64,000 nt of DNA from an uncultured Actinomycetota bacterium (lineage in GTDB: Bacteria; Actinomycetota; Acidimicrobiia; Spongiisociales; UBA4744), in assembly GCA_963723165.1 (NCBI GenBank), contig CAVRPP010000007.1:133513-197512 (forward strand), in the 5' to 3' direction. The stretch's first letter is position 1, and each line of letters starts with the position of its first letter. A program made the translations under genes and the position numbers. This document shows positions 3,122 to 56,275 of this stretch, in pieces. Below the pieces are notes generated by a model. It was given only the letters and a program-made list of their open reading frames with translations. It was not told the origin of the DNA and did no database searches.

Positions 3122-3374
3122 GATCCTTTCAGAAATCCCATCGTCCACTGAGACGGTGAAGATCGTGTGAAGGGTTTCTGAGAATTGTCTAAGAATTGAG
3201 CGCAGCTCGCAACTCGCAAGAACCAAACCAAATTATTTGGCAGTTTGTGGCAGGTCTAAGTCACGGTCGGGTCTAGTGTCACTGCACCAAGGCAGCCGTC
3301 CTGGTGAAACGAAACAACATCGTCCATCCGGACAACGCGCCGGGGGATCTTGAGACGCAGGAGGCGTGGGAGTT

Positions 3375-4097
3375 ATGGGGATCAAGTACGCGAAGTCTCT
3401 TCTGGCGACGATCGTGGTGGCGCTTGTCGCCTCGGCGTGCAGTGGTGCGGACGACAACGCCGAGCCCACGGTACTCACCACCGTGACCGTGGCTCCTTCC
3501 GATGCTGGTGGTGCCGGCGGCGACGATCCGGCGCCCGAACCCGGAGGCAGCGATTCGGATGAACCATCGTCCGTTGATGAGGCGCCTCCGGCAGACGCGG
3601 GCGGGAGCGGTTCGGGTGGAGATGGCGTCATCCTGGCCGACGTCTGCTCGGACGGCCAGCCGGTGAACGGTGCGGTCTCCTTGGATGACCTGGTGACTTT
3701 CGGCCTTTTCGCTTCCAACGAAGCAACGGTTGAGGGCAACGGTGCCTATGACGCTTCGACCTATGGTCTATTCGGATTCCTGTGCAACATCACGGAAGTC
3801 GGCGGCCAGGAGAACTTCATCACGATTGGCGTGAGCGATGGGAGCGGAGTTTGGGACATTGCCGTTGGCAGCGGGCCGATCGAGCAGATCGGAGACTGGG
3901 AAGTGATCGTCGGGAGCAACTGGTTGTCCCCGTTGACAATGCGAACGACCGACAGCGCAGGGAATCAGGACAGCCTGTTCGTCACATGGGTTCCCGGCGA
4001 CGGCTCCATTCCCGACGCGGAAACCCTTGAGCGAGTGATGCGTCCGCTCGCCGAGGCCATGGCTACCCGGACCACCGTGAACATACCTCGGGGCTGA
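3375..4097 (+). CDS. Secreted lipoprotein, function unknown
   Basis: Signal peptide with lipobox LVASAC, followed by a low-complexity Asp/Gly/Ser-rich linker and a C-terminal globular region. ATG at 3375 is better spaced from GGAGG than GTG at 3366. Confidence 0.6.
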   Translation: MGIKYAKSLLATIVVALVASACSGADDNAEPTVLTTVTVAPSDAGGAGGDDPAPEPGGSDSDEPSSVDEAPPADAGGSGSGGDGVILADVCSDGQPVNGAVSLDDLVTFGLFASNEATVEGNGAYDASTYGLFGFLCNITEVGGQENFITIGVSDGSGVWDIAVGSGPIEQIGDWEVIVGSNWLSPLTMRTTDSAGNQDSLFVTWVPGDGSIPDAETLERVMRPLAEAMATRTTVNIPRG

Positions 4098-4423
4098 CGC
4101 CGCGAAATGGGCGATCTCGCCTGCGAAGTGGTTTCCGGGGACATGGATCCTCCGGGATAATCGATCAGTGGCGATTCGGAGGCTGAGGCGCGGCCATCGT
4201 GCCGGGCCGGGGCGGGCTCTCGGGCCAACCAACGGGCGTCGAACATGTCGCGCACGACTTTCCCGGTGTCGACAACGTCGCGATCCAACCCAACGCCATC
4301 CGTCGAGAGGCGAGCACGGACCGCCGCGAATGTCGTGTTGCCCGGGACGGGCGGGCTGGAGCGACTACGAAATGGCCGAATCGCTCTACTGCTGCCGACT
4401 GCCTGACGACTAACCTCCGCGCC

Positions 4424-5233
4424 ATGGTGATCGGCTATCAAGGTGAGCGCTACTCATACAGCGACCGGGCATCCCGGGAGATGTTTCCGGACGGTGATCT
4501 GATCGGATATCCAAATTTCGTGGCAGCGTTCGCCGCGTTGGCGAACGGTGCAGTCGAACGACTAGTTCTCCCGATCGAGAACTCCACAACCGGGAGCGTG
4601 CTGGCCGTTCTCGATCGGCTGGTTGACGCCCCGGCCCGCATCGTCGCAGAACACCAGGTCGAAGTACGGCACGCCCTCCTGGGGTTGCCCGGAGCGTCGC
4701 TCGACGAAATCAAGCAGGTCCGTTCTCACCCCGAAGCGCTCTCGCAGGCCGAAGCAATAATCCAGGCCCGGGGTTGGCAACCGATACCAACTCATGACAC
4801 GGCGGGTGCGGTCCGGCAAACGGCCGAGCACCAGAACCCGGCTGAAGCGGCACTGGCACCGCCGGAGGCCGCTGGACCGCACAACCTCGAAGTATTGATG
4901 TCCGATGTGGTGGATCGAACCCACAACACCACACGGTTCGTTGTCTTGGCGGGAGGTCAACCGACCATCGCCGCCGAGGCCGATAAATCGAGCATGGCCT
5001 TCGAAACCCAGCATCGGCCGGGCGCGCTGGCCCTGGCGCTGACGGAACTCGGACTGCGCGGTGCCAACCTGACGCGAATCGAATCGCGCCCAACCGACAC
5101 CCCCTGGCGTTACCGCATGTTTGTCGATCTCATCCATCGGCCGGGCCCGGAAGGGTTTGCGGAGGTATTCAATCCGCTGCCCGGCTCGATGGCCGCGCTT
5201 CACCATCTCGGAACCTACCGGGCCGAGGTCTAA
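4424..5233 (+). CDS. pheA: Prephenate dehydratase
   Basis: Internal ATG of ORF 4199..5233. PDT domain (LPIENSTTGSV, TRF motif) plus C-terminal ACT domain (ESRP). Confidence 0.9.
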   Translation: MVIGYQGERYSYSDRASREMFPDGDLIGYPNFVAAFAALANGAVERLVLPIENSTTGSVLAVLDRLVDAPARIVAEHQVEVRHALLGLPGASLDEIKQVRSHPEALSQAEAIIQARGWQPIPTHDTAGAVRQTAEHQNPAEAALAPPEAAGPHNLEVLMSDVVDRTHNTTRFVVLAGGQPTIAAEADKSSMAFETQHRPGALALALTELGLRGANLTRIESRPTDTPWRYRMFVDLIHRPGPEGFAEVFNPLPGSMAALHHLGTYRAEV

Positions 5234-5280: not shown

Positions 5281-6333
5281 TCAATCGAGGTCCGCCGGGA
5301 ACAGTCGATGGAGGGGCTCCAGAAGCCTGACCATGTCGGAGCTCGGAGGGCCCGCCACCCGGGCAACATCGTGAATCTCCGGGAGGTGTGGCAGCAGTAC
5401 CTTGGGCTCCAGGCCCAGCCAGTGGCGGGCGGCACGGACGGTATCTTCCCGACGGTCGGCGGGTACACGGTTGAGGACCAGAGCGGGGAGCGGCGCCGCC
5501 CAGGCCTCGACGGTTGCCGCCGCTCTCACCAAACCCTTGGGAGTTGCCTCGCACGTCAGGATCCGGGAAGCGGCCCGATAGAGCAAAGGATCGTCCGGTT
5601 CGCTCACTCCGAGGTCGACGACGATGCGGTCGAAGGTTCCCTCCGCAGCCTGGATGACCTCGTTGATCAGTGCAGAGGTGAGGGGACCGGAGTGGCGAAT
5701 CGGCGGGCCGGCCAGGAGCGACAGCGGTCCTATCCGACGAACCTCGGAGGGGAATACTCCGGACAGCAAGACCGCGTCGGCTGCGTGTGCAACATCAGGA
5801 GCGGGCAGCACCCCCAGCCTCACGGAGAGCGAAGGTCCCTGCCGGTCCAGGTCGATCAACAGGGTCGACCGTTGCTCGGCGAGACCCCACGCCAGACTGA
5901 GAGCAATCTCGGAAATGCCGGGGGCACCTCGACCGCCCGTGACCGTGATCAAGCTGCCGGACCCGACGGGGGCCGGGGGCGGCTGCCGCAACGTTCGGAC
6001 GATGTGGAGGATGCGGTCCGGGGGCGTTGAGTCGGGGAGCACCTCATCGGCACCGCCGACCGTAAGCAAGCGGCGGCCCGGTCGGTCGCTGGGCGGATAC
6101 AACCCCAACACTGCCGACCCGCCGCTTCGCCATTTCTTGATCACCGTGGGAGTGACCCAGGCAGTTTCGGCTCCGGCGATAATCACGTCGAGCTCGCCGG
6201 TTCGACGATCGAGGTCGGACGGTTGATGGGCTCGCGCTACCAAACGGACCATGCTGGTCGAGCGTGCCATGTCCGCGAACGTGGACTCCCAGGGGCGGGC
6301 AGAGAGAACGGTGGCGACCCGCGGACGGGTCAT
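5281..6333 (-). CDS. CpaE/TadZ-like (ParA/MinD superfamily) protein with degenerate Walker A; Ssd-like helicase/secretion-neighbourhood CpaE-like family
   Basis: Start MTRPRVATVLS sits at an ATGA overlap with the upstream gene. N-terminal receiver-like region, then TVTGGRGAPGIS in place of GGKGGVGKT, then a MinD-like fold. Confidence 0.7.
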   Translation of the reverse strand: MTRPRVATVLSARPWESTFADMARSTSMVRLVARAHQPSDLDRRTGELDVIIAGAETAWVTPTVIKKWRSGGSAVLGLYPPSDRPGRRLLTVGGADEVLPDSTPPDRILHIVRTLRQPPPAPVGSGSLITVTGGRGAPGISEIALSLAWGLAEQRSTLLIDLDRQGPSLSVRLGVLPAPDVAHAADAVLLSGVFPSEVRRIGPLSLLAGPPIRHSGPLTSALINEVIQAAEGTFDRIVVDLGVSEPDDPLLYRAASRILTCEATPKGLVRAAATVEAWAAPLPALVLNRVPADRREDTVRAARHWLGLEPKVLLPHLPEIHDVARVAGPPSSDMVRLLEPLHRLFPADLD

Positions 6334-6635
6334 GTGCTGGTCGATTGGATGACAACGATGTGCGCCAGGGCAAGGCACATGGTGATGCGGTTTGTCAGGA
6401 GGATCACGTGATCCACCCCGACGGCCGCGATGGTGCCGGTCCTGGTCTCGCCGTCGATGGTGGTGACCCGGACGGCTTCGTCCCGATCCTCGGCGTCCAG
6501 CAATCGATCGCGGATGGTGCTTCGTCGTCGCAACGTGATGGCCGCAGCCTCTTGCTCGGCGTTCAGGACCTCGGCCAGCTGCAGCCGCAAGCGGCGGGAG
6601 ATCTCGATGAGGTCGGGATGTTGTAGCGGATCCAT
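6330..6635 (-). CDS. Hypothetical protein translationally coupled to the CpaE-like gene
   Basis: RBS AAGGTG upstream of ATG at 6635. Stop overlaps the downstream start as ATGA. AT-rich promoter region upstream. Confidence 0.5.
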   Translation of the reverse strand: MDPLQHPDLIEISRRLRLQLAEVLNAEQEAAAITLRRRSTIRDRLLDAEDRDEAVRVTTIDGETRTGTIAAVGVDHVILLTNRITMCLALAHIVVIQSTST

Positions 6636-6770
6636 CGCACCTTAGAATATTGTCGAATACTCTCATCAAACGATAACTTCACACTATTCGATCGACAACT
6701 GATCCGTTCTGTTTTGTTTCGCGCCCCGGGTCCCTTGCTCATCTGCGCTGGTTCCCATAGCCTGGGGCCG

Positions 6771-7763: not shown

Positions 7764-8974
7764 TGGATCCGACGGTTGAGATCGATGTCCACGATATGGC
7801 GCACGGGGGTGAGGGTGTTGGTCGCCACGACGGCAAGGCCGTTTTTGTAGCCGGGGCCATTCCCGGCGAGCGAGTTCGCGTGACTCTCGTCACCGAGAAA
7901 AGGAACTGGGCCCGCGCCGATCTCGAAGAGGTGTTGACCCCGGTTTCGGCCAGGGCCGTGCCTCCCTGCCCGCACTTCGACGATTGCGGAGGGTGTCAGT
8001 GGCAGCACATGGCCAACGCCGAACAGCTGAAATGGAAGTCGGCGATCGTGGCCGGTCAGCTGCGTCACCTCGGCGGGGTTGTCAGGCCCGAAATCGCCCC
8101 GATCGTGAACTCGAGCGAGCCCTTTGGCTACCGCAACCGGATGACGTTCCACGTCGGGAACGGCCACCCCGGTCTGTATCGCCATCGCAGCAAACAGCTG
8201 GTTCCCATCTTCGCTTGCCTCTTGCTAGTCCCGGGTCTGAGGGAGTTGTACGGGCGGCTCGGCGACCTGTCGGGTGTGGATGAAATCACGCTGCGGATGG
8301 GCGTCACCACCGGAGAACGGGCTGTACTCATCCGTGGGCGGGTGCCCGAGCAGGCGGCGGAATGGAAGGCCTCCGTCGTCCGTCTGGCCGGCCGGCGATT
8401 CGAACCCGTGATCGGGCCACCCTCCATCCACGAGGCAGTCGGCGGCGTTCGCTTCAGGATCACCGGCCCGGCCTTCTTCCAGGTGAACACTGCCGGGGCC
8501 GAAACACTTGCCGAAATCGTTGGCGACGCTCTGCAACCCACCGGCTCAGACACGCTGCTCGACGCCTATGCCGGCGTCGGGCTGTTTTCTGCAACGGTCG
8601 GTAGGTCGGCGGGCAGGGTGATCGCAGTGGAATCGAGCGGAGTCGCCCTGGGCGACTTACGCCACAACCTGGGCGAGGCCGGGATTGCGAATCACGAGGT
8701 TGTGCGGGGGCGGTTCGAAGAGGTCGCCCCCGCTACATCATGGAGCATCGCGGTTTGCGACCCTCCCCGGACCGGGCTCGGCGAGCTTGGGGTCGCTGCT
8801 CTGGTGGGGGGAGCGCCGCGGCGCATCGCCTATGTCTCGTGCGACCCGGCCAGCCTGGCGCGAGACACACGAATGCTCGACGGGGCGGGTTATCGCTTGA
8901 AGAAGGTGACCCCGGTAGATCTGTTCCCGCAGACCTTTCACGTCGAAGCCGTGGCCGAATTCGAGCTCAAGTAG
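7763..8974 (+). CDS. TRAM-domain class I SAM-dependent RNA (uracil-5)-methyltransferase (RumA/RlmD-like)
   Basis: N-terminal TRAM domain, CPHFDDCGGCQWQH Fe-S cluster, SAM-binding fold and C-terminal catalytic CDPPR motif. Start overlaps the upstream stop. Confidence 0.85.
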   Translation: MDPTVEIDVHDMAHGGEGVGRHDGKAVFVAGAIPGERVRVTLVTEKRNWARADLEEVLTPVSARAVPPCPHFDDCGGCQWQHMANAEQLKWKSAIVAGQLRHLGGVVRPEIAPIVNSSEPFGYRNRMTFHVGNGHPGLYRHRSKQLVPIFACLLLVPGLRELYGRLGDLSGVDEITLRMGVTTGERAVLIRGRVPEQAAEWKASVVRLAGRRFEPVIGPPSIHEAVGGVRFRITGPAFFQVNTAGAETLAEIVGDALQPTGSDTLLDAYAGVGLFSATVGRSAGRVIAVESSGVALGDLRHNLGEAGIANHEVVRGRFEEVAPATSWSIAVCDPPRTGLGELGVAALVGGAPRRIAYVSCDPASLARDTRMLDGAGYRLKKVTPVDLFPQTFHVEAVAEFELK

Positions 8975-8980
8975 GCTCCT

Positions 8981-10543
8981 CTACGGAACCGTACAACCGA
9001 GCGCGTCCGGGGGAGTCTCCCGCCAGGTTCCGGGCCGCGGGATGAACGCATCGGCCAGCGCCGGGTCGAACTCGAAACCGGCGACGGCTGAAACGCTGGG
9101 TGGCCGGAAGTGAATCTCGAGACGGTTGCTCGAAACGTCCTTATCGCCGTACATGGCGCCGTAGATGGTGGTCTGGCTAGACGCTCCGAAGGTTCCGCCT
9201 GCATAGATCAAATGATGGATCTGGCCCTCAACAGAGTTGGCACTGTTGGCCATCGTGACATCGCTCGTTGGCTCGACCCCGGCGATCACCACGGTGGCCG
9301 GTGCCAGAGCCGGGTCGCTCACTCCGTTGGGTGTGCCGCGCACTTCGAGGTCGCCCTTGAACGCCAGCACGAAATCGCCTGCCAGGATCGCCTTGTCCAT
9401 GTTGAGAGTGAATGAGCCGGGATCGTTGACGAAGTGCGCTCCGGTCAGGGCCGAGTCGTTGGCCTGGTACCAGGTGTCGAACTGCGCCCAGGTGGCGTGA
9501 TTGAACACCGTCACACCGGCGTCGGTGTACTTGGTTGGATCCCACACGAAATTCGGCAGCGAGATTTGGGGCACCGGGGCGATGCCGGTGGCGTTCCACA
9601 CATACCCCGCCGCAGTGGGTGGAGTGTCAACTGTGGTGGAGGGCCCTGCCACCTGCAGGTTGCGGCCGACCGAAGACTGATTTCCTTTGAACTTCGACTT
9701 GACGAACCCCGATACGGCCGTGTCGTTGAGGATGATGACATCGGCGCCGTTGGTTCCAAACTTGCTGCCCTTGTTGTCCTGTACAAAGCCGTTGACCTTG
9801 GTTTCTCCTGCGATTTCGGCGTTGGCCCCGTTGCTGATGAGCAGGTCGCCGTAGACCAACATCTGGCCAACGCCCGGCGCACCATCATCATTCGGATAGA
9901 TGCGCGTGTAGTTGCCGATGGCCAGGTCGTCGCCGGAGTACGCATCGCCGTAGATCTCTTTCCGGTTGCCGGCCGTCAAGCCGCCCTCGGCGGCGAACAG
10001 GGCGTAGTAAAACCCGCCACCGATCGGGACGAGTTCGACTTCGATCACGACTTTCTTCGAGACTGCCTGCACGGCATTGTGGTTGGGCGCCCATCCCCAC
10101 GACTCGATCAGATACGACCGGGCGGAAGCCAGGGGAAGGGCGCGAACCCAGTACTCACCCTGAACGTCGTTGGTGCCGTCGATGACCGTCTCGAGGGTAT
10201 CCAGATCACAGGTAGTTCCGGTGATGCCGGTGGTGGCCATGCCCGCATCAGCGTCGTCTCGTATGCCCCCCTCGTTGGAGGCAAGCAGGTACATCATTTC
10301 GCGTGCGCCCGCCTCGGCCACGTTGACTGCAGTGGCCAGATGCCGGTCGTACCCGACTTCCTCCAATTCGTGGACCGAGACGGAGTACCAGGTTGCACCC
10401 AGGATGAAGATCACGACGGCCACCGAAAGAGCCGAGGCAATGCCGATCCCGTCATCGTCAAGCAGCAGCTTCTTGAACAAGGCTTTCATGCTGGTGATAT
10501 CGGCACCCCGTGGTCGATTCTGGAGCAGGTCCTCGGCGTTCAT
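8981..10543 (-). CDS. Membrane-anchored large secreted protein with TadE/TadG-like N-terminal hydrophobic segment
   Basis: ATG at 10543 overlaps the stop of the upstream pilin-like gene (ATGA). N-terminus DDDGIGIASALSVAVVIFILGA resembles the Tad-like N-terminal helix. Rest is Gly/Asn/Thr-rich and probably extracellular. Confidence 0.5.
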   Translation of the reverse strand: MNAEDLLQNRPRGADITSMKALFKKLLLDDDGIGIASALSVAVVIFILGATWYSVSVHELEEVGYDRHLATAVNVAEAGAREMMYLLASNEGGIRDDADAGMATTGITGTTCDLDTLETVIDGTNDVQGEYWVRALPLASARSYLIESWGWAPNHNAVQAVSKKVVIEVELVPIGGGFYYALFAAEGGLTAGNRKEIYGDAYSGDDLAIGNYTRIYPNDDGAPGVGQMLVYGDLLISNGANAEIAGETKVNGFVQDNKGSKFGTNGADVIILNDTAVSGFVKSKFKGNQSSVGRNLQVAGPSTTVDTPPTAAGYVWNATGIAPVPQISLPNFVWDPTKYTDAGVTVFNHATWAQFDTWYQANDSALTGAHFVNDPGSFTLNMDKAILAGDFVLAFKGDLEVRGTPNGVSDPALAPATVVIAGVEPTSDVTMANSANSVEGQIHHLIYAGGTFGASSQTTIYGAMYGDKDVSSNRLEIHFRPPSVSAVAGFEFDPALADAFIPRPGTWRETPPDALGCTVP

Positions 10544-11187
10544 GGGCAATTGGCCGAGTTGGGGGTCCAGATGTTTCGACCCGAGATCTCTGTTGTACCG
10601 AGCCGGGCGTTGATCCGGTCGTTGATGTTCTGATCGACCCAGATCCGGATGGTGATGACCTTTCCCTGGGAAGGAAGCGCCGACGCCACCCCACCCTGGT
10701 TGGTGAACACGGGCACTCCGACCGTTCCCAGTGGCCGGCCCACTTTGGTGTTGTAGTCGTCGTCAACGATGGTCTCGTTCTGGACCCCGCCGATCACGGT
10801 GCGCCAGGTGACGCCATCGTCTGAGGATCGTCGCAAGTCGGTGGCTTGTCCGTCGCCGTCGTCGTCGCGGAGTTCGTAGATGAGGTCAACAAAACCCACG
10901 GCACTGGTGGTGGCCGTGTAAGCGCGAGTGCGGAATTCCAACCGATCGGAATCGAAGCCGGGGAGCGGGTCGCACACTCGTTCGGCGCTCCGAAAGTCGC
11001 GGTCCAGCTGCTGCAGAACGAGGCGAACGTCGTCGTTGGAGCGTGCGGTACCCTCCAGGTCACGGGTGGCGAACATCGTGGTTCGTAGCAGGGACAGGAA
11101 GACGGCCGCGACAATCGTCATCAGCATCATGGCCACCATCAGCTCGGCGAGGGACAGGCCACGATCTGAGCGGTGCAGGCGGCTCAT
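10540..11187 (-). CDS. Prepilin-type N-terminal cleavage/methylation domain protein (pseudopilin-like)
   Basis: Internal start MSRLHRSDRG|LSLAELMVAMMLMTIV matches the G|xxxxE prepilin motif followed by a hydrophobic helix. TGATG junction with the upstream gene. Confidence 0.6.
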   Translation of the reverse strand: MSRLHRSDRGLSLAELMVAMMLMTIVAAVFLSLLRTTMFATRDLEGTARSNDDVRLVLQQLDRDFRSAERVCDPLPGFDSDRLEFRTRAYTATTSAVGFVDLIYELRDDDGDGQATDLRRSSDDGVTWRTVIGGVQNETIVDDDYNTKVGRPLGTVGVPVFTNQGGVASALPSQGKVITIRIWVDQNINDRINARLGTTEISGRNIWTPNSANCP

Positions 11188-13118
11188 CAGCTGGCATCCG
11201 GATCGATGTAGAGAGCCGTGACCCCGACTCCGCCCAGGTCGAAGGTGAGGTTGACGTTGTAGAGGGTGCCGTCCAAGAGGAGGTCGGCGTCGACCAGGGT
11301 GTCGACCACGCGGTAACTGATGTTTCCGGTAACCATCCCCGTGGCCTGGAATCGAGCTTCGGAAACGTCCATGTTGGTGTCTTCGGTGTAGGACCGACAC
11401 GGCGTGCGGACCAGAATCGACCCCTGGATCTCGTAGTGCAGTTGAGGGTCACCGCTCGGTGTGATATCCCAGGTGAGCGGCCCGCCGGCACCGTCGCCGA
11501 TGTCTATTACGTCTGGTGCCGGAAGAGCCGAGCAACTCCCGATAGCACCAAATCCTGAGTAGATGGTGACGTATTTGCCGGGAGGGGATGGATCCCAGAC
11601 CTTGATGATCACATCCCCGCTGGTGGACACTGCGGGCGGACGGGCCGCATTCTGACCTGCAGCGAGATCGGTGCCGGATAACCGAGGGGTCTCAACAATG
11701 ACCCAGCCTTTGAACTTGTTGTTCTCCAGCGGGCCGACCGAGTCCGGGAAGAGGTAGATAGGCTCGCCCTCCCAGCTGTAGTCAATGCGCACCTGGCGGT
11801 CGGTGGAGGGAGAAGGAGCGTTGTAGCGGTCGACATTGGCCGAATAGTCGAGCGCCGGGCCGACGGAATCGTGTCCGCGGGCAACAAATGCGAATTCGTA
11901 GAACGCGGCATCCAAAGACGCGCCCAGTTTTGCTTCATACAAGGTGCGAACCGCAGCGTCCGAGTATTCGATGAAGCCCCCGTTGGTGCGGTCGGCCGAA
12001 ACCAACCCGAACCCGGCATATGGCAGGCCATCTACTTTCGGGTCCAGGCCCGTCGGGTTGTATTCGGTCCACAGCTCGGCCCAATACTCGCTGGCTTTCG
12101 GAGCCAGGAGGTTGGTGAGGTCGGCGACATTGAAGTCGTAAGGGTGGGCGCCGCTGATCTGAAATGGGGGCGGCAGGGTGGTCAGGATAGCGTTGGAGTC
12201 GTCCAAGGGTGCGGTCGAGACTGCGTCGTCATCGGCTGCTCGCAGCACGTCAACCGGTTCCGGACGAACAATGACATCGTCGGCGGTATTGAACAATCCG
12301 TCCGGCCCGGCGTACCTCACCTCTCCGGAGGTGGCCGAGCTTCGCACGATCTCGGATGAGATGTAGTCGCTGGTACCGGAGACAAACCCGTCTGAGAAGA
12401 CAAGATTTGCCTGGAAAAGCCCTCGTGGAGCTGCCACCCAGGCGCGGGATCCGCTCACATCGCCGGTTACGGTCAGCGAGCCACCGTCCATCGTCACCTC
12501 GCCGTGCATGAGCGGCTGCGACGGCTCGGTGAAGGGAGAAACGAGGGTGGAGAGGCGCACGTCGTGCGGCAGGCCGCCGGGAGCTTGCCAGGCAACCATG
12601 GAGGTTATGCGCCGGTACTTCTCGGTGGCCGGATCGAGCGGATCCGTCCGCACCGACGTCACGAACAAGTAGCGGTCGAAGTCGGTGTTATCTCGCGTTT
12701 GGAGATCGTGAAACGAGAGGAACGGGTCGAAGGTTGCTCCGTTCACGAAGACGATCTCCTCCCCTCCAAAATCCCAGTTGCTTGTCAATGGGTTCAATGT
12801 CAGGTCGGTGCCGAAGACACCCGTGACCGGGTCGCTGAACGTCGTACAGCCGACCTCGGTCGGACAGGTAGTTCCGTTGGCGAGTGATGTCAGGCCCATG
12901 TGATTCCACTCGAGCGACCGGGCCCTTTCCAGTAACTCCGAAGCGAAAGCCGTTGCCGACGCCTGGCGTTTGGTCTCGACGATGACGCGGGTTCCCGTGT
13001 CCATGGTTCGCAGCAGGGCGACTACCAGAGCGAAAACGATGGCCAGCGCCACGACCGACTCGACAATCGTGAACCCTGATTCCCCGTGCAACCGCGCGGC
13101 AAAGCGCTTCCCAATCAT
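11187..13118 (-). CDS. Large (643 aa) prepilin-type N-terminal domain protein (giant pseudopilin / tip-adhesin-like)
   Basis: N-terminus ESG|FTIVESVVALAIVFALV is a near-canonical type IV pilin G|FTLIE motif. The long C-terminal region is beta-rich and extracellular-looking. Confidence 0.6.
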   Translation of the reverse strand: MIGKRFAARLHGESGFTIVESVVALAIVFALVVALLRTMDTGTRVIVETKRQASATAFASELLERARSLEWNHMGLTSLANGTTCPTEVGCTTFSDPVTGVFGTDLTLNPLTSNWDFGGEEIVFVNGATFDPFLSFHDLQTRDNTDFDRYLFVTSVRTDPLDPATEKYRRITSMVAWQAPGGLPHDVRLSTLVSPFTEPSQPLMHGEVTMDGGSLTVTGDVSGSRAWVAAPRGLFQANLVFSDGFVSGTSDYISSEIVRSSATSGEVRYAGPDGLFNTADDVIVRPEPVDVLRAADDDAVSTAPLDDSNAILTTLPPPFQISGAHPYDFNVADLTNLLAPKASEYWAELWTEYNPTGLDPKVDGLPYAGFGLVSADRTNGGFIEYSDAAVRTLYEAKLGASLDAAFYEFAFVARGHDSVGPALDYSANVDRYNAPSPSTDRQVRIDYSWEGEPIYLFPDSVGPLENNKFKGWVIVETPRLSGTDLAAGQNAARPPAVSTSGDVIIKVWDPSPPGKYVTIYSGFGAIGSCSALPAPDVIDIGDGAGGPLTWDITPSGDPQLHYEIQGSILVRTPCRSYTEDTNMDVSEARFQATGMVTGNISYRVVDTLVDADLLLDGTLYNVNLTFDLGGVGVTALYIDPDAS

Positions 13119-13174
13119 GGGTTGGTTATCGGCGCCTCAGACCAGGTTCTGTATAGCCAATACCGACGATCGAA

Positions 13175-13519
13175 TCAGTGCGGCAGGGGTTCCAGGTCGA
13201 TCGGGAGCCCGGCTTGATGCCAGGCGATGATGCCGCCGGCCAGGTTGAGGACATTCTCCATCCCGGCCTCACGCATGAGGGCTGCAACGGCCATAGCGGA
13301 ACGGTTGCCCGACCGGCATTGCAGGATAACCGTACGGTCTCGCGGCAACTCCTCGAACCAGTCGTTGATCTCCGAAAGGGGCATGAACTCGGCTCCGGGG
13401 ATGCGGACTTCCTCCCATTCGTCGGCTTCGCGAATGTCCACCATCAGAGCTCCGGCAGCCATTAGGCCGGAAGCCCCGGTCGGATCGGTTTCGGGTACGC
13501 CCCCGAAGAGGTCGGTCAT
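13175..13519 (-). CDS. Single-domain rhodanese (sulfurtransferase)
   Basis: Active-site loop CRSGNRS and rhodanese fold motifs. Confidence 0.8.
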   Translation of the reverse strand: MTDLFGGVPETDPTGASGLMAAGALMVDIREADEWEEVRIPGAEFMPLSEINDWFEELPRDRTVILQCRSGNRSAMAVAALMREAGMENVLNLAGGIIAWHQAGLPIDLEPLPH

Positions 13520-13617
13520 GGCGAGGACGATAGTCGAGATGGGCTCTTCGCCAATTGTCGCCGGGAGCTCCAGTCGCCCGGTAGCCTTTGGTGGTGCAAA
13601 TCCCCACTTCTCGTTCT

Positions 13618-14853
13618 ATGCCTGGAACGTACCGGCCCGGTGCGACCCGGCGCCGGATCGGTTCGGTCGTGGTTGGAGCCTTGCTGATATCGGCGTTCTC
13701 CGTTGGTCCAGTCGCCGCCCTGGGTTCGGCAGAAGAACGGGTGTTGACGATTGGGGAGGTCGGTGGGATGTCCCCGGAGGTCGAGGCAACCATCACCTCC
13801 GCGGCGGAAAGGTTCGGTGCCCGTTGGGCAACGTTCCATCGCGGGACCTTACGGATGACTGCGGTGGAGCGAGGTGACGAGATCGTCCAGGAGGCGCCCT
13901 CCGGCTACTTCTACCCTATGTCGACGACTGCAGTGGAAGGGAGACGAGCGGCCCCTCTGCTGGGGGACAAAGTGACCGCGGTGCTCTTGAGCGGCCGGGT
14001 GGTGTTCGGTGAAACATCAGCGAAGTTGCGCGGGGCGATGGTGGGAGATCGGGTGACCCTGATCGGATGGGACGGACGGAGTTATCAATTCGACGTCGGC
14101 GCCATCGTGGCCGACGAGTTGATCGGCTGGGCGGAACTGGTTCTGGATGCGGAAGTTGCTTCGAAGATCGGCTTCGACCGTGCTTCGTTTGTCGCCCTGT
14201 GGGACTACGGACCCGAGGATGAGTTGTTGCTGGCCCTGTGGTCCCGTGTACCCGACGCCCTGCTCACCATCAACACTTCCTTCGACCCCGACGATCCCGA
14301 TGCGGTCTTGCCCACCGTCCTGGTCAAAGAGAAGTTTGGCGAGTTTGCCTACCGTCCTACGAGCGGGGACCGCATCATCCTGGATTCAGCATGGCGTCGC
14401 GCCAACATCGTCAATGTTGATCTCCCGTATCTGGGCCCTTTCCGCTGCCACAAAGACATCGTGCCGCTGCTCGAAGGAGCTATCGAGGAGATAGAGACCC
14501 AGGGTCTGGCCTGGATGATCGATCGCCAGGATTTTCAGATCGCAGGAGGGTGCTACAACGCCCGCCTGATCCGGGGCGGCGACAAGGGTGGGGCTGTGTC
14601 CCGCCACACGTGGGGCATTGCCGTTGACATCAATCCCGGCGACAACCCCTACGGTGGCCGGGTGGGAATGGACGTCCGTATCGGTGAGATCTTCCGCAAG
14701 TGGGGTTTTGCCTGGGGGGCCGGTTGGCGTTACACCGACGGCGGTCACTTCGAGTGGACCCACTCGGCGGCCGAAGCTGCGGTCGCCCTCAATCCCGGCA
14801 GCCGGTCACCCGCCACCGGCGATCTCTTCGGGGAATCCGACGGGTGGAGTTAG
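13618..14853 (+). CDS. Secreted peptidase M15 (VanY-like D-Ala-D-Ala carboxypeptidase) family protein
   Basis: Signal peptide after an internal start. C-terminal Zn-binding motifs HTWGIAVDINP and DGGHFEW. Confidence 0.75.
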   Translation: MPGTYRPGATRRRIGSVVVGALLISAFSVGPVAALGSAEERVLTIGEVGGMSPEVEATITSAAERFGARWATFHRGTLRMTAVERGDEIVQEAPSGYFYPMSTTAVEGRRAAPLLGDKVTAVLLSGRVVFGETSAKLRGAMVGDRVTLIGWDGRSYQFDVGAIVADELIGWAELVLDAEVASKIGFDRASFVALWDYGPEDELLLALWSRVPDALLTINTSFDPDDPDAVLPTVLVKEKFGEFAYRPTSGDRIILDSAWRRANIVNVDLPYLGPFRCHKDIVPLLEGAIEEIETQGLAWMIDRQDFQIAGGCYNARLIRGGDKGGAVSRHTWGIAVDINPGDNPYGGRVGMDVRIGEIFRKWGFAWGAGWRYTDGGHFEWTHSAAEAAVALNPGSRSPATGDLFGESDGWS

Positions 14854-24548: not shown

Positions 24549-25649
24549 TCACGGCCCCGGCAAGACGTCGACGATGACGTCCTGATTGGCGGCCAGTTCC
24601 TCAGGGAGCACTTTGTCTGCCGTCAGGAACAGCGACTCGTTGCCGTGGCACGAGTCACATGAGGCGTTCTGCAGTGTGTTCCGCTGGATGTTGTGGGGTG
24701 TGGCCGGAGCAAATGTCGGCCGGGCATCGAACTCGGGGAGCAGGTTCGTCCCGTAGAACGAGAAGCTGTCCGGGTCGATGGGCACATGACGTACCACTGT
24801 GTAGCTCCAGGGTCGCTGCTCTGTGGGCTCGGCGTTCTTGCCGATGTAGAACGCCATTTCCGACGGTTCGATCTTGAAGTACGGCGTACCTGCATCCGAC
24901 GTCTGCACGTGGCAGCTGTAGCAGTTCTTGTAGTCGACCGAATGGCATACCTGACACGACAGGTTTGCCGAATGGATCGAGTGCTGCTGGTTGCCATCTG
25001 CCCCGCCTTCGACATCCGGGTGACAGTCGACGCATTCGACGGCCGCATCGTCGTAGCGATGCTCCTGTTCGGGAACGTCCCCATGCATCTCCGCAGCACC
25101 GTGACAGTCGAAACACGCCATGCCGCCGGGGTTGAAGTGGACGTCGGCGGGATACATACCGCCGTCTGCCGTCGCGTTCTTACCCTTGTACTCGTCGTTG
25201 ATCCGGCTCCCGTGGCAGCCCGTGCAGGTCAGGTTCATCGGTGGCGGATTCTTGAACGAGTGACCGTCAAGGAGTCCGCCCCCGGCGCTGGTCGGCCGGC
25301 TCACATGGCACTGGCCGCACGACGTGTGGCAACCGGCGCAATGATTCTCGAAGGCCAGCTCCAATCCGGGTGAGAGCTCCTCGCTGCCGGTCCTTTCGGC
25401 CAAAACGGTCAGGTAACCGTCGAGGGTCGAGTGCAGGCTCATCGCTTCGGTGGTGCTGATGTCGTTGTGGCAGCTGGCGCACGTCTCGATGGAGTTCGGG
25501 TCTCGGACCATGCCGGTGTGGGCGGCCTCTATCCCGTTCGCCTGGCCATCACCACCGTGGCAGGCGATACAGCCGAGAGCTCCGTGAGTTGTCTCAAAGA
25601 AAGCGTCGTCACTGACGAAAACCTGTTCCCATGCCTCTAACTGAGGCAC
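24549..25649 (-). CDS. Decaheme c-type cytochrome (no signal peptide of its own)
   Basis: Ten CxxCH motifs in 366 aa. GTG start preceded by GGAGG. In frame with the upstream lipoprotein heme gene across one TGA. Confidence 0.8.
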   Translation of the reverse strand: MPQLEAWEQVFVSDDAFFETTHGALGCIACHGGDGQANGIEAAHTGMVRDPNSIETCASCHNDISTTEAMSLHSTLDGYLTVLAERTGSEELSPGLELAFENHCAGCHTSCGQCHVSRPTSAGGGLLDGHSFKNPPPMNLTCTGCHGSRINDEYKGKNATADGGMYPADVHFNPGGMACFDCHGAAEMHGDVPEQEHRYDDAAVECVDCHPDVEGGADGNQQHSIHSANLSCQVCHSVDYKNCYSCHVQTSDAGTPYFKIEPSEMAFYIGKNAEPTEQRPWSYTVVRHVPIDPDSFSFYGTNLLPEFDARPTFAPATPHNIQRNTLQNASCDSCHGNESLFLTADKVLPEELAANQDVIVDVLPGP

Positions 25650-25985: not shown

Positions 25986-27065
25986 TTATCCGGTGACCGT
26001 CGGGTAGTCGGGGGCGGAGCTGAACGGCGTTTGGGCCAAGATGTCGACGTCGTCGGTCCAGCCCATCATTCCGAACTTCATGTTGATGACGTCGTAGCCG
26101 AGCAGTTTAAGGGCAGTAGCCGCTACCTGGCCGGTGTGGCCGGTGTAGCAGTACACCATGATTGGCTGATCGGTCGGCAGCGAAGGCAGGTTGGCCGTGT
26201 CGGCGATCTCTTTCCAGTAGATATTGATGGCCCCTTCGACATGCCCCAGGTCATACGACTCGGCGGCTCGCACGCTCACGACGAAGTAGTCGTTGGAATC
26301 GTCACCATCCGCCATGTTGTCGAACAGTGCCGACGCTCCCGCAACGGGCGTCCAGTCGGCCAGCATGGCCCGGGCGGAGGCGAGAGCAATGGCCGAAGCC
26401 TCGGTCTCACCGGTAGCCAGGACCGGAAGGTCGTAGGTTTCGGTGGCAACGGTTGGCTCGGTGACGGTCGGATAGCCGGGGGAAGTTGTGAAGGGGGTGG
26501 TTGCCACGACGTCGAGGTCGTTGGTCCAGCCCATCATCCCGTACTTCATGTTCTGGACGTCATAACCCAGCAACTTCAGCAACGTTGCGGCTACCTGGCC
26601 GGTGTGACCGGTGTAGCAGTAGACCACGATCGGTTGATCGGTGGGCAACTGGGCCAGGCTGTCCTCGTCGACGATGGTTTTCCAGGGGATGTTGATGGCC
26701 CCTTCGATATGACCGAGCGCGTAGGCGTCGGGGGCCCGCACGCTGACGACGAACGGATCGTTGGAGTCGTCACCGTCGGTCAGGTTCTCGTAGAGGGCGT
26801 CGGCGCTGATGACCGGCTTCCACTCAGTCAGCACAGCATTGACATGCTCGGCGAGCACCAGCTCCTCGGCGACCATGGCCTCCGTGGTGGTCGGCGCTTC
26901 GGTGGTCGTCGTGGCTTCGGTGGTCGTCGTTGTGGCCTCGGTTGTGGCCGGCGCCGCAGTAGTGGTGGTCTCTTCAGCCGCGTCGTCGGCACATCCCGCC
27001 AGCACGATCATGCTGAATACCGTGAACACCGCCAGCAGCTTGAAGACTTTGGTTCTCCGTGACAT
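25986..27065 (-). CDS. Tandem-rhodanese lipoprotein (two rhodanese domains, each with a CYTGH active-site loop)
   Basis: Lipobox VLAGC with RBS AAGGAG. Thr-rich linker. Two duplicated domains of about 150 aa with VYCYTGHTGQ. Confidence 0.85.
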   Translation of the reverse strand: MSRRTKVFKLLAVFTVFSMIVLAGCADDAAEETTTTAAPATTEATTTTTEATTTTEAPTTTEAMVAEELVLAEHVNAVLTEWKPVISADALYENLTDGDDSNDPFVVSVRAPDAYALGHIEGAINIPWKTIVDEDSLAQLPTDQPIVVYCYTGHTGQVAATLLKLLGYDVQNMKYGMMGWTNDLDVVATTPFTTSPGYPTVTEPTVATETYDLPVLATGETEASAIALASARAMLADWTPVAGASALFDNMADGDDSNDYFVVSVRAAESYDLGHVEGAINIYWKEIADTANLPSLPTDQPIMVYCYTGHTGQVAATALKLLGYDVINMKFGMMGWTDDVDILAQTPFSSAPDYPTVTG

Positions 27066-27076
27066 CAGGTTGCTCC

Positions 27077-27094
27077 TTGTGAAACAATTCACAA
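27077..27094 (-). promoter_or_regulatory. Perfect CRP/GlxR-type palindrome TTGTGAA-TTGT-TTCACAA (TGTGA-N6-TCACA) abutting the rhodanese RBS
   Basis: Seen directly in the sequence. The AAGGAG RBS overlaps its 3' end and the ATG follows 12 nt later. Confidence 0.45.
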
Positions 27095-31450: not shown

Positions 31451-34396
31451 TCAATCCTTATAGAACCGCTCCTCAACCAGTCGCCGCGCCCTCCTGGTGA
31501 GCCGCCGGTATTCCTCACGAACCGACGATCGCGGGGCGTCGAAACGGCCCAGAGAGAGAGCCAGGCGGGACAACTCATCCTGATCGGTCGGAAGCGAATC
31601 GACCGGGCGGCCGTATTGCAGGAACAAGCGGTTCCGGACGGTTCCGCAGAAGCGGTAAGCGGCGACCAGATCACGAGCGGCCGACGACGGCAGGCGGCCG
31701 GCCTCGGTGAGCACTTCGAGCGCAGCCTCCGTTCCCTGGGTGCGCAGATCGGGGTTCCGGCTCCCAAACCGCATCTGATGGAGCTGGACGAGGAATTCGA
31801 TGTCGTTCATGCTGCCTTTGCCGAGTTTGAGGTGGAAGTCCGGATCCTCGCCGGGCCCGAGCCGTTCCCGTTCGATGCGGGCTTTCATGGTGCGGATGGC
31901 GCGGATGGCGTCGGGGTTGAGGGTTTCGGGGTAGACGTGGGGGGCGATGAGTTGGGTGAATTGTTCTCCGAGGTGGGGGTCGCCGGCGGCAGGGCGGGCT
32001 TTGATCAGCGATTGGAATTCCCAGGTTTGGGCCCATTTGTCGTAGTAGCCGGCGTAACCGTCGAGGGAACGGGCCAGCGGACCGTTCTTGCCTTCCGGCC
32101 GGAGGTCGGCGTCGACCCTGAAGGCGGCCCCTTCGGGAGTGACTTTGCCGAGGGCGGCCATGAACTCGGCGGCGGTCTTGTTGGCGTAGAGGCGGACCTG
32201 TTCGGGGTCTGCCCCGGCGGGGGGGTCGTAGACGAACAGCATGTCGATGTCGGAGGAGTAGTTGAGTTCTTGTCCTCCCCATTTGCCCATGGCGATCACG
32301 GTGAAGGGGACGGCGGGCAGGTCTTTGAAGGTGGGGGAGCGTCGCAGTTCCTCACCAACGGCGGCCAGAGCGGCCGCTGCGGCGGCGTCGGCGGTGTCGG
32401 CCAGGTCCCGGCCCACTTCGGGCATCGTTGCCTGCCCCAACAAATCCCGCACCGCGATCCACAACAACCTCCGCCGCACAAACCGCCGCACCGCCCGGAA
32501 TCGTTCGGGATAGCTACTTCGCAGCAACACCCTCTGGGTGGCGTTATTGACGAGCTCCGCTTTGGTCGGCAGGGCTGCCAGTGCCCGGTCGTCTCCCAGC
32601 CTGGTGAGAAACTCGGGGATCCGGTCGAGCATCTGTCCGAGAAGGCGGCTGGTTCCCAACAACCGGCACAGGCGTTCGGCCGCGACGGGCGCATCACGGA
32701 GGGTGCCGATCAGTGCCGCATTGTCGGGGAGGGAGGTCACGAGGAGCCGCAGCTGCTCGAGACCGAGGTCCGGGTGGGGGGCGTCCGACAGCCAGTCCAT
32801 CATCAGCGGCAACAGCTGCTGCATCAGCCGGGAGCGTCGCGACAACCCGGTGGTCAACTCGGCCAGTGCCCGTTGAGCCGCTTCGGCGTCCTGGAAGCCG
32901 AGTACAGCTAGTTGACGAGCCGCGCCTTCGGGTGACAGATGCACGGTGGGCGAGGCGGCAAAGGCCTCAAGCAACGGTCGATAGAAGAGGCGCTCGTGAA
33001 TGGTGCGGATGGTTGCGCGGTGCCGCACCAATTCCTCCTCGAAGTGGTCGAGAGCGTCGTGCTGCTCGTCGTCCCGGAATCCCATGCTTTTCGCCAGGCG
33101 GGTCCGCGAGGGCCGGTCCTCCGGCAGCGTGTGGGTCTGCTGCAGATCGTATATCTGGATGCGATGCTCGAGGTTGCGCAACCACTCATAGGAAGCGGCC
33201 AGATCCCGGGCATCATCGTCGCGTACGTAGTCGTGTTCCCCGAGGGTCACGAGCACGTCCAGAGTGCTCGGTGAACGCAACGCCTCGTCGAAGCGGCCGT
33301 GGACGAGTTGGAGCAATTGCACGGCGAACTCGACGTCCCTGATTCCCCCGAATCCCCGCTTGATCTCAGAGTACGAAACCCCGCTTTCCTCGGCCCGACC
33401 CTCGATGCGGGCTTTCATGGTGCGGATGGCGCGGATGGCGTCGGGGTTGAGGGTTTCGGGATAGACGTGGGGGGCGATGAGTTGGGTGAATTGTTCTCCG
33501 AGGTGGGGGTCGCCGGCGGCAGGGCGGGCTTTGATCAGCGATTGGAATTCCCAGGTTTGGGCCCATTTGTCGTAGTAGCCGGCGTAACCGTCGAGGGAAC
33601 GGGCCAGCGGACCGTTCTTGCCTTCCGGCCGGAGGTCGGCGTCGACCCTGAAGGCGGCCCCTTCGGGAGTGACTTTGCCGAGGGCGGCCATGAACTCGGC
33701 GGCGGTCTTGTTGGCGTAGAGGCGGACCTGTTCGGGGTCTGCCCCGGCGGGGGGGTCGTAGACGAACAGCATGTCGATGTCGGAGGAGTAGTTGAGTTCT
33801 TGTCCTCCCCATTTGCCCATGGCGATCACGGTGAAGGGGACGGCGGGCAGGTCTTTGAAGGTGGGGGAGCGTCGCAGTTCCTCACCAACGGCGGCCAGAG
33901 CGGCTGCTGCGGCGGCGTCGGCGGTGTTGGCCAGGTCCCGGCCCACTTCGGGCATCGTTGCCTGCCCCAACAAATCCCGCACCGCGATCCACAACAACCT
34001 CCGCCGCACAAACCGCCGCACCGCCGTCAGGCGCCCGGCAGGGGAGTCGCCGTCGACCGGTTCATCCAGCTCCGGCACCTCCGCCGGTCTGAACCAATCG
34101 GGTTTGGCCCGAACCGTTGAGGCGAGAGCCCGGCTCGAACCGGTAATGGCCACGAGGGCCCGGCCGACGACGGGATCATCGAGCGCCTCTTCGGCCAACC
34201 GGGGTGCTGCTTCGAGGATGGCGATGATCCGGTCCAGGGTCGGTCCGGGTTCAGGCCCGTGCCGTGCCGTCCGCAACAACTCCCGGGCCGGTGGCGCGAC
34301 GAGCCCGTCCTCGCCGATCCACCCGACCGCGGCAAAACGCGGCACGAGTGGTTCGGCAATTCCGAGACGGGCCGGCGAAGCGTCGGTGGTCATCAA
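31451..34396 (-). CDS. glnE: Bifunctional glutamine synthetase adenylyltransferase/adenylyl-removing enzyme
   Basis: 981 aa with two GlnE nucleotidyltransferase halves (GKWGGQELNYSSDIDMLFVY twice). Confidence 0.9.
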   Translation of the reverse strand: MMTTDASPARLGIAEPLVPRFAAVGWIGEDGLVAPPARELLRTARHGPEPGPTLDRIIAILEAAPRLAEEALDDPVVGRALVAITGSSRALASTVRAKPDWFRPAEVPELDEPVDGDSPAGRLTAVRRFVRRRLLWIAVRDLLGQATMPEVGRDLANTADAAAAAALAAVGEELRRSPTFKDLPAVPFTVIAMGKWGGQELNYSSDIDMLFVYDPPAGADPEQVRLYANKTAAEFMAALGKVTPEGAAFRVDADLRPEGKNGPLARSLDGYAGYYDKWAQTWEFQSLIKARPAAGDPHLGEQFTQLIAPHVYPETLNPDAIRAIRTMKARIEGRAEESGVSYSEIKRGFGGIRDVEFAVQLLQLVHGRFDEALRSPSTLDVLVTLGEHDYVRDDDARDLAASYEWLRNLEHRIQIYDLQQTHTLPEDRPSRTRLAKSMGFRDDEQHDALDHFEEELVRHRATIRTIHERLFYRPLLEAFAASPTVHLSPEGAARQLAVLGFQDAEAAQRALAELTTGLSRRSRLMQQLLPLMMDWLSDAPHPDLGLEQLRLLVTSLPDNAALIGTLRDAPVAAERLCRLLGTSRLLGQMLDRIPEFLTRLGDDRALAALPTKAELVNNATQRVLLRSSYPERFRAVRRFVRRRLLWIAVRDLLGQATMPEVGRDLADTADAAAAAALAAVGEELRRSPTFKDLPAVPFTVIAMGKWGGQELNYSSDIDMLFVYDPPAGADPEQVRLYANKTAAEFMAALGKVTPEGAAFRVDADLRPEGKNGPLARSLDGYAGYYDKWAQTWEFQSLIKARPAAGDPHLGEQFTQLIAPHVYPETLNPDAIRAIRTMKARIERERLGPGEDPDFHLKLGKGSMNDIEFLVQLHQMRFGSRNPDLRTQGTEAALEVLTEAGRLPSSAARDLVAAYRFCGTVRNRLFLQYGRPVDSLPTDQDELSRLALSLGRFDAPRSSVREEYRRLTRRARRLVEERFYKD
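31872..32495. repeat. Intragenic direct repeat copy A (624 bp, about 99.5% identical to copy B) inside glnE
   Basis: Aligns base for base with 33402..34025 (offset 1530 bp) with 3 mismatches. Identical antisense ORFs confirm the offset. Confidence 0.9.
33402..34025. repeat. Intragenic direct repeat copy B inside glnE
   Basis: See copy A. Confidence 0.9.
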
Positions 34397-44209: not shown

Positions 44210-44306
44210 CTTTCGATGATCCCACATATTGATGCTCATCGCTATGACGACGGGCCGGTGATTGGAATGAATGTGGCAGACTGCCGATCGGAAAGGAGGT
44301 GGTGTC

Positions 44307-56200: not shown

Positions 56201-56250
56201 ATCACCGCTGGTACTCCGAGCGCCGATTGACGGGCGGCAACCCTCTCGAT

Positions 56251-56274: not shown

Positions 56275-56275
56275 T

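Follow-up and report, generated by a model that had tools for sequence, protein, structure and literature searches.

Three consecutive genes on the minus strand of a 64 kb stretch of DNA from an uncultured Actinomycetota bacterium of the class Acidimicrobiia encode pilin-like proteins, and the question raised by this locus is which pilus machine, if any, these proteins serve. The whole stretch (64,000 nucleotides of contig CAVRPP010000007.1, with a G+C content of 62-65%) is referred to below as the window, and the three genes as g1, g2 and g3. All three are intact open reading frames (ORFs) and are tightly packed. We propose that the trio is very probably the core minor-pilin set for the priming and the tip of a type IVa pilus, of which the machine is encoded elsewhere. 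The best reading of the individual genes follows the canonical order I-J-K or V-W-X, with g1 as a PilV/GspI-like, g2 as a PilW/GspJ-like and g3 as a PilX/GspK/ComZ-like pilin.

At the N-terminus of each of the three proteins there is a short charged leader with Gly as its last residue, and then a hydrophobic alpha1N segment of about 20 aa. The N-terminus of g1 is MIGKRFAARLHGESG/FTIVESVVALAIVFALVVALL (the slash marks the predicted cleavage site), including a leader of 15 amino acids (aa) with cleavage predicted after Gly15, and that of g2 is MSRLHRSDRG/LSLAELMVAMMLMTIVAAVFL, with cleavage predicted before Leu11. The leader of g3 ends in DDDG, and the predicted mature N-terminus starts with IGIAS. 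An acidic-rich leader end of the form [ED][EDR]G is common to the window trio and to the machine-linked pilins described below. Pilin hidden Markov models (HMMs) were searched with their curated cut-offs, 21.2 bits for Pfam N_methyl (PF07963) and 16.3 bits for TIGR02532, and g2 was found above both, with 24.8 and 18.3 bits, respectively. For g1, an N_methyl match at E<=0.01 was detected in 3 of 28 family members. The Gly at position -1 and the Glu at position +5 are invariant or nearly so among about 60 homologues of g1 and 31 homologues of g2, down to about 32% identity. In g1, Gly15, Phe16 and Glu20 are conserved in 61 homologues, and the Glu at mature position +5, Glu20 in g1 and Glu15 in g2, is invariant. 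The g3 family keeps the Gly at -1 and the hydrophobic helix, yet never has Glu5, the position +5 being occupied by Ser or Thr in all homologues. The absence of Glu5 is a known exception of the GspK/PilX-type tip pilins. Each family also has an invariant pair of Cys residues (Cys85/Cys91 in g1, Cys72/Cys214 in g2 and Cys94/Cys499 in g3), as expected for exported proteins.

Judged from the HMM scores of g2 and from these alignments, the prepilin motifs are beyond chance. The ratio of nonsynonymous to synonymous substitution rates (dN/dS), determined against four relatives, was 0.09-0.11 for g1, about 0.10-0.13 for g2 and 0.13-0.19 for g3, these values being approximate because dS is near saturation; by this measure the trio is under strong purifying selection. 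The first-pass annotation of this DNA, made from the letters alone, had taken all three genes as type IV pilin-like, had pointed to prepilin motifs at the N-termini of g1 and g2, and had suggested that loss of these motifs in orthologues would speak against its view. The leader, the Gly and the hydrophobic helix are kept in the homologues of all three proteins, and the processing sites of g1 and g2 are conserved in orthologues, so that this objection does not apply.

The firmest assignment was obtained for g3, the product of which is annotated as hypothetical. In the AlphaFold model (predicted local distance difference test, pLDDT, 89.9), helix alpha1 of residues 12-71 is followed by a 4-stranded pilin sheet, and the sheet by many short strands in succession, with one more strand close to the C-terminus. 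We read this last strand as part of the pilin sheet, in which case a beta-solenoid of about 300 aa would be inserted ahead of it. Upon comparison of the model with the PDB using Foldseek, ComZ (6QVI) was the only strong match, detected for two chains (E=5.7e-9 and 2.6e-8, probability 1.00), and the next matches were tapirin, beta-solenoid adhesins and ice-binding beta-solenoids. At the level of sequence, the g3 family profile gave only noise against PDB sequences, and the window protein gave no match to Pfam PilX_N (PF14341). A relative (locus L030, positions 3337-4689) scored 190 bits with the g3 profile and passed PilX_N, with 25.8 bits against a cut-off of 25.5 bits. Based on the model, g3 is a PilX/GspK/ComZ-type tip pilin. 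The description of g3 as Tad-like in the first-pass annotation had to be abandoned, as neither TadE nor Tad was matched in Pfam, the model matches ComZ, and the relative at 190 bits passes PilX_N.

The assignments of g2 and g1 are weaker than that of g3. The matches of g2 to NCBIfam models (ComGF, PRK08808, HpsC and PRK10557) are below cut-off and lie mostly within residues 1-70. Among the 31 members of the g2 family, the sub-threshold NCBIfam matches were to ComGF in 10 cases, to Verru_Chthon cassette C in 6, to the GspJ model PRK08808 in 5 and to HpsC in 3. The names given by NCBI to homologues of g2 include 'PulJ/GspJ family protein', and against PDB sequences the g2 family profile matched only the alpha1N segment of major pilins. 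Taken together, g2 may be classified as a PilW/GspJ/ComGF-like pilin.

The g1 protein is modular. In its AlphaFold model (pLDDT 78.6 overall, low in the head region 68-135), alpha1 of residues 18-68 is followed by a small pilin head of residues about 70-200, which contains the invariant Cys85 and Cys91, and by a beta-rich C-terminal domain of about 440 aa (residues 203-640) with high pLDDT. The N-terminus gave NCBIfam matches to ComGE, HpsB, XpsI and GspI, all below cut-off, and one homologue is named 'PilV family' by NCBI. The N-terminal module is probably PilV/GspI-like, an assignment resting mainly on gene order and on this one annotation. In a whole-chain fold comparison of the model, no significant match was found in the PDB or BFVD, the g1 family profile matched nothing among PDB sequences, and for the C-terminal domain no relative in sequence or fold was detected in the PDB, BFVD or Pfam. 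The C-terminal domain of g1 is, on its predicted structure, a candidate for a new tip-adhesin fold. Adhesin or von Willebrand factor A (vWA) folds had been named earlier as folds to look for in the C-terminal domains; in g1 neither a vWA nor a lectin domain was found, nor any recognisable relative. The earlier suggestion of tip-adhesin or minor-pilin roles for g1 and g3 is supported, both being read as modular minor or tip pilins.

The three genes travel together. For each protein, about 60 relatives were found at the 90% cluster level, nearly all of them from metagenome bins of uncultured Acidimicrobiia or other Actinomycetota. Using one genome per GTDB species, a total of 21 Acidimicrobiia loci were detected. 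The order g1-g2-g3 was observed in 18 of the 18 distinct loci that carry all three genes on the contig, the remaining 3 of the 21 end at a contig edge, and the order is broken in none. In most of the GTDB Acidimicrobiia loci the trio is located between ruvB and mgsA/rarA, and in two gene-annotated contexts of the core family between relA and hisS. In distant relatives it lies between relA and a metallo-beta-lactamase (MBL)-fold gene plus hisS. A link between the trio and this downstream MBL-fold gene was considered and rejected, because relA-...-MBL-hisS, with a glyoxalase II-like MBL protein, is what we take to be an ancestral actinobacterial housekeeping synteny (compare Rv2580c-Rv2583c of Mycobacterium tuberculosis), and it is also present in three loci without the trio (L036, L042 and L055).

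We then come to the pilus machine. In a Pfam search of all credible genes of the 64 kb window, no T2SSE ATPase, no T2SSF platform protein and no A24 peptidase was detected. A scan for Walker-A motifs, including a relaxed pattern that covers the GGTGSGK of TadA, and a scan for prepilin motifs revealed no machine gene and no further prepilin gene in the 64 kb. The lack of an assembly ATPase, a platform and a prepilin peptidase within 20 kb, as noted in the first-pass annotation, thus holds for the 20 kb and for the whole window. The wording that no machine is nearby applies to this window. In other family members the start of pilB is found at a downstream distance of no more than about 10 kb, so that the isolation is a matter of degree.

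When the g1-family profile was searched exhaustively against 1.84 billion representative proteins, 495 relatives were obtained, among which a second tier consists of proteins of 550-650 aa in Actinomycetota bins. Seven distant contexts were read. In three of them (L028, L029 and L031; see Table 1), a complete type IVa pilus cluster has a homologous trio inserted between the major pilin gene and pilD. The profiles of the window families match the trio genes, in order, in these machine-linked clusters, each of which also encodes PilD with the A24_N_bact and Peptidase_A24 domains. The other four contexts contain orphan trios, some of them duplicated, that adjoin relA, an MBL-fold gene or hisS. 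The genes alaS-ruvX-mltG precede the pil cluster in L028 and L031, and in the orphan loci alaS is located about 6 kb downstream of the trio; for this reason, metagenome contigs were scanned with AlaS. On one contig (L040), the arrangement relA-[trio]-aspS-rarA-alaS-ruvX-mltG-DUF4388-pilB was found, in which the trio scored 788, 220 and 587 bits with the g1, g2 and g3 profiles, respectively, and pilB encodes the MshEN and T2SSE domains. This contig is 99.9% identical to one of the GTDB Acidimicrobiia loci (L015). On another (L039), the order is relA-[trio-like genes]-MBL-...-alaS-...-pilB-pilT-pilC-pilA-pilD-pilM, and the pil cluster itself is devoid of minor pilins. The trio of L039 was assigned from gene order, from leader motifs and from a g1-like ORF of 31 bits, the only and a weak match to a window-family profile; the g2-like gene of this locus is above the Pfam N_methyl cut-off, and the leader encoded by the g3-like gene has Gly at -1, with no Glu5 after it. 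The distance from the orphan trio to the pil genes is about 10 kb in both L039 and L040, which places pilB just outside the 10 kb flanks of the loci examined earlier. In L036, L042 and L055, relA abuts the MBL gene, and neither the trio nor pilB, pilT or pilC is present. In agreement with a pilus of this type in the class, a published survey reports type IVa pilus genes for free-living representatives of UBA5794, an order of the Acidimicrobiia (PMC12008989).

Among the alternatives, the one that survives best is that the type IVa machine has been lost in the window's lineage and that the trio stands alone as a surface complex, anchored in the membrane or released by a peptidase, with a role as an adhesin or an envelope factor. 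As a variant, fibre assembly might be absent altogether, or a generic A24 peptidase might be all that acts on the trio. Such a history would fit the departure of the trio of this clade from the relA-hisS/alaS-pil region, the lack of a machine within 64 kb and the retention, in some relatives devoid of pilB, pilT and pilC, of an A24-like peptidase ORF at alaS, but we regard it as unlikely in view of the strict conservation of Glu5 (g1 and g2) and of the Gly at -1 together with a dN/dS of about 0.1, as expected under selection for filament-type assembly. Furthermore, the informative loci have the trio together with pilB and neither without the other, and minor-pilin operons separated from the machine are the norm in other phyla. 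A more specific proposal of the same kind would be that the trio of the window's clade forms a PilB-free, membrane-rooted stub of three helices, processed by a peptidase and carrying a head of about 145 kDa made up of the g3 solenoid and the g1 domain. This appears doubtful to us; if true, the stub would be a monoderm surface organelle of a new kind that has its origin in the tip complexes of pili. In a milder form of this proposal, the C-terminal domain of g1 would be a new fold that replaces PilY1 as the tip plug or adhesin in actinobacterial type IVa pili.

A secretion-type role, in which the trio would cap a short pseudopilus of the T2SS (type II secretion system) or Hps kind and export protein or polysaccharide through the monoderm wall, is quite improbable as well. 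PilT is encoded in the linked clusters along with a major pilin typical of type IVa, which points to a retractile pilus, and the similarities of g1 and g2 to the HpsB/HpsC and GspI/GspJ models, by which this role is suggested along with the connection of cyanobacterial HpsA-type PilX beta-solenoids to polysaccharide secretion, are sub-threshold and limited to the N-termini. Since one machine could do both jobs, the difference would be a functional nuance rather than a separate identity. The view that the trio is a TadE/TadF/TadG-like set of a Flp/Tad pilus with a CpaF/TadA machine is very hard to sustain and essentially ruled out, for, although Tad loci are common in Actinomycetota (PMC12008989) and a weak CpaE/Ssd-like ATPase gene (5284..6669) lies about 2.3 kb from the trio, this gene scores only 43 bits against a cut-off of 154 bits with no tadA, tadB or tadC beside it, no TadE (PF07811) or Tad (PF13400) match was obtained at E<=0.1, the N-termini of g1 and g2 match N_methyl, ComG, Gsp and Hps models, g3 folds like ComZ/GspK, the machine-linked homologues are located with PilB (MshEN plus T2SSE), PilT, PilC, PilM, PilO and PilD (A24_N_bact), and tadA, tadB and tadC were found neither in the window nor in any locus examined. 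Of the earlier proposal of a satellite minor-pilin operon serving a Tad or type IV pilus machine encoded elsewhere, the satellite set is retained, with type IVa as the machine indicated by the clusters of the relatives, and the Tad part is dropped.

A number of observations weigh against the assignment to a type IVa pilus as well. The N_methyl score of g1, 13.2 bits, is below the curated cut-off, and g3 has no match to any curated pilin HMM. The TM-score of g3 to ComZ is low (0.27) despite the strong E-value, which probably reflects the long helix and the orientation of the domains in the model. The labels PilV and PilW depend on sub-threshold N-terminal HMM matches, on gene order and on source annotations. 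Neither PilB, PilC, PilD nor a major pilin is encoded within the 64 kb window, and the operon has no fourth core minor pilin of the FimU/GspH type. Co-occurrence was tabulated from very few loci, 2 having both the trio and pilB and 3 having neither. In the clade of the window, the trio has been relocated next to the M15 peptidase, rhodanese and rlmD genes, and the link with the machine is there by homology only.

If the trio is the minor-pilin set of a type IVa pilus, its mode of action may be proposed by analogy with the known systems. Each protein would be inserted in the membrane via a class III signal peptide and would be cut after the conserved Gly by a prepilin peptidase of the PilD type. 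The three N-terminal helices would then assemble, on a platform of PilC/PilMNO, as a staggered trimer like that of GspI-J-K, of which g3 would form the apex; the absence of Glu5 from g3 is proposed to follow from the absence of a subunit above it. This trimer would prime the PilB-driven polymerisation of the major pilin and would remain at the tip of the fibre. The beta-solenoid of g3 and the 440 aa domain of g1 would together form a functional tip head, for which a surface, a polymer or DNA is a candidate ligand, and this large head may substitute for the absent PilY1. The pilB, pilT, pilC, pilA, pilD and pilMNO genes of the source genome would be located outside the 64 kb window.

The arrangement is a common one, and the finding is real but fairly ordinary. 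As detached minor-pilin operons are common in other phyla, the trio is a further case and not a new type, and no concept in pilus biology is changed by it. To our knowledge, the type IV pili of Actinomycetota, especially those of the abundant uncultured soil and aquatic Acidimicrobiia, have hardly been studied. The core minor-pilin set of Acidimicrobiia pili is now given a likely identity, with a modular pilin of the PilV kind, a pilin resembling PilW and a beta-solenoid pilin resembling ComZ/PilX as its members. In one lineage and in another related to it, minor pilins are missing from the pil cluster and appear to be supplied by a trio located between relA and hisS about 10 kb away. These assignments may be of use for genome annotation and for the prediction of traits such as adhesion, twitching and DNA uptake in these lineages.

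The positions of the genes and the arrangement of the machine-linked clusters are summarised in Table 1.

Table 1. Features of the probable minor-pilin locus in the window and gene arrangement of the three type IVa pilus clusters containing homologous trios
Feature	Position	Strand or orientation	Description	Basis
g1	11187..13118	minus	643 aa; modular minor pilin	translation
g2	10540..11187	minus	215 aa; PilW/GspJ/ComGF-like minor pilin (putative)	
g3	8981..10489 (502 aa) or 8981..10543 (520 aa)	minus	PilX/GspK/ComZ-type tip pilin (from the model)	
Rhodanese gene	13175..13519	minus	upstream of g1	Pfam
Peptidase_M15_4 gene	13588..14853	divergent from trio		Pfam
Spacer, 56 nt	13119..13174	minus	between rhodanese gene and g1	
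L028			pilB-pilT-pilC-pilA-[590/217/476]-211-[647/222/501]-pilD	
L029			pilA-[653/209/482]-pilD-pilM-N-O	
L031			pilB-pilT-pilC-pilA-pilA'-[605/203/467]-pilD-pilM-N-O	

Two starts are available for g3. In the alignment of homologues, a short leader ending in [ED][ED]G/IGIVTAL is conserved, within the N-terminal consensus ...[ED][ED]G/IGIVTAL..F.VF.LGA.WY..S.HELDE. Because the relatives keep this short leader, the ATG at 10489, located 50 nt past the stop of g2, is the more likely start and would give a protein of 502 aa beginning with MKALFKKLLLDDDG/IGIASAL; the predicted cleavage site is identical for both candidate starts. Overlapping junctions throughout had been described before. The 1-nt overlap TGATG between g1 and g2 was confirmed, but the ATGA overlap between g2 and g3 exists only with the less likely start of g3 at 10543. 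No sigma-70-like promoter was found in the region 8700-13700, the terminator-like matches were uninformative, with none located between g3 and rlmD, and an Rfam search gave no match. As no regulatory element was found in the spacer upstream of g1, the trio may share a transcript with the rhodanese gene or may have a promoter of an unrecognised type.

The rhodanese gene upstream on the same strand and the divergent M15 peptidase gene are as described in the first-pass annotation. Rhodanese is located upstream of the trio only in the window's clade, and relA takes this position in the distant relatives. The M15 peptidase and rhodanese were also weighed as functional partners of the trio and discarded, as these neighbours are kept only in the close clade of the window.

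Some other features of the trio and pil loci were noticed. A tandem double trio is present in several Actinomycetota (L028, 10001-18963; L030, 1098-8788; and the locus of protein P0231). These tandem trios recall the two specialised minor-pilin sets of cyanobacteria, which suggests, by analogy, two types of filament made by one machine. An A24-like peptidase ORF is located about 6 kb downstream of alaS in L036, L042 and L055 and also in L033, L041, L044 and L052. These relatives have neither the trio nor pilB, pilT and pilC, and the ORF occupies the place taken by the pil cluster in other lineages. It may have been left over from a pilus locus that was lost, or retained as a peptidase for Tad pilins. 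Directly upstream of pilB there is a conserved gene (L040, 14137-15057; L034, 15151-16221; L028, 3530-4720; L031, 3799-4605), which encodes a DUF4388 protein in L040 and matches Roadblock/LC7 very weakly in L028 (E=0.027). Its product may be a regulator of pilus assembly.

Elsewhere in the window, the CpaE/Ssd-like gene, on the minus strand at 5284-6669 with its sub-threshold match to TIGR03815, encodes a P-loop ATPase of the ParA family. The first 130 or so annotated codons look non-coding, and the true start is probably internal. It was considered as a remnant of a pilus machine and rejected, its score being far below cut-off and tadABC not being found beside it. The ORF of glnE (glutamine synthetase adenylyltransferase; 31451-34396, minus strand) contains a direct repeat of 624 nt with 2 mismatches (31872-32495 and 33402-34025), the near-identical block being present in both nucleotidyltransferase halves; a recent gene conversion or duplication within the ORF could account for this, as could an artefact of assembly. 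Several rhodanese genes are present in the window, one of them at 25986-27092 (minus strand) in addition to that beside the trio. The product of this second gene has two rhodanese domains and an N-terminal linker rich in Thr and Ala, and the gene adjoins one for a multihaem cytochrome with an MtrC/MtrF-like domain (24549-25649, minus strand); the pair may form a module for extracellular electron transfer or for sulfur. A protein of the AIR-synthase family (44385-45350, plus strand; Pfam AIRS and AIRS_C only), which adjoins an ArsR-type regulator (43877-44413, minus strand), may be read from its sequence as SelD-like (selenophosphate synthetase). The region of about 52900-59200 contains only short or fragmentary ORFs, including an AlkZ-like match to profile positions 134-327 of 329 and a lone EamA fragment, and looks like decayed genes or poor assembly.

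A comparison can be made with several known systems. The structure of the T2SS tip complex GspI-GspJ-GspK was reportedly described by Korotkov and Hol in 2008 (PDB 3CI0). The trio shares with this complex the I-J-K order, a K-type member without Glu5 and with an inserted domain, and, presumably, an initiating bundle of three helices. In contrast to the T2SS, the relatives of the trio are linked to type IVa clusters containing PilT, the inserted domain appears to be a beta-solenoid and not alpha-helical, and g1 is about five times as large as GspI. In Pseudomonas aeruginosa (fimU-pilVWXY1E) and Escherichia coli (ppdA-ppdB-ygdB-ppdC), minor-pilin operons lie at a distance from pilBCD and pilMNOPQ, and the priming of assembly depends on them. 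The g2 protein weakly matches the Ppd models PRK10557 and PRK10506 of the E. coli operon. Unlike the P. aeruginosa operon, no PilY1 gene is present here, and the extra domains of g1 and g3 may take over the role of adhesin or plug.

PilB and PilC of Streptococcus sanguinis, which belong to the type IV pilus of a monoderm, resemble g1 in combining a pilin module with a large functional module (PMC8179133), though the C-terminal module of g1 is neither vWA nor lectin. Closer to the trio as a whole are the PilX-PilV-PilW-FimT sets of cyanobacteria, including HpsA-D, which likewise form minor-pilin cassettes often located away from the machine (bioRxiv 10.64898/2026.02.12.705559). All cyanobacterial PilX minor pilins have a beta-solenoid build and are paired with PilV and PilW (bioRxiv 10.64898/2026.02.12.705559); the beta-solenoid is proposed to be a tip plug, PilV is an obligate partner, and g1 and g2 give weak matches to HpsB and HpsC. 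The trio differs from these sets in having no fourth member like FimT/FimU and in the very large extra domain of the PilV-like g1, and it belongs to another phylum.

For g3, the closest known counterpart is ComZ of Thermus thermophilus, a GspK-like tip pilin whose penultimate strand is separated from the last by an inserted beta-solenoid, and which has been proposed to cap the competence pilus together with PilA2 (PMC6561018). No sequence similarity is detectable between g3 and ComZ, and the DNA-binding lysines cannot be mapped. The partners are also different, a modular pilin of 643 aa and a GspJ-like pilin being present here instead of PilA2, and the host, presumably monoderm as judged from its phylum, has no secretin to be passed; a role in competence would be a matter of analogy. 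In architecture, g3 agrees with ComZ of the ComZ-PilA2 pair (6QVI; PMC6561018) in the hydrophobic helix, the GspK-like sheet, the large triangular beta-solenoid and the non-canonical N-terminus.

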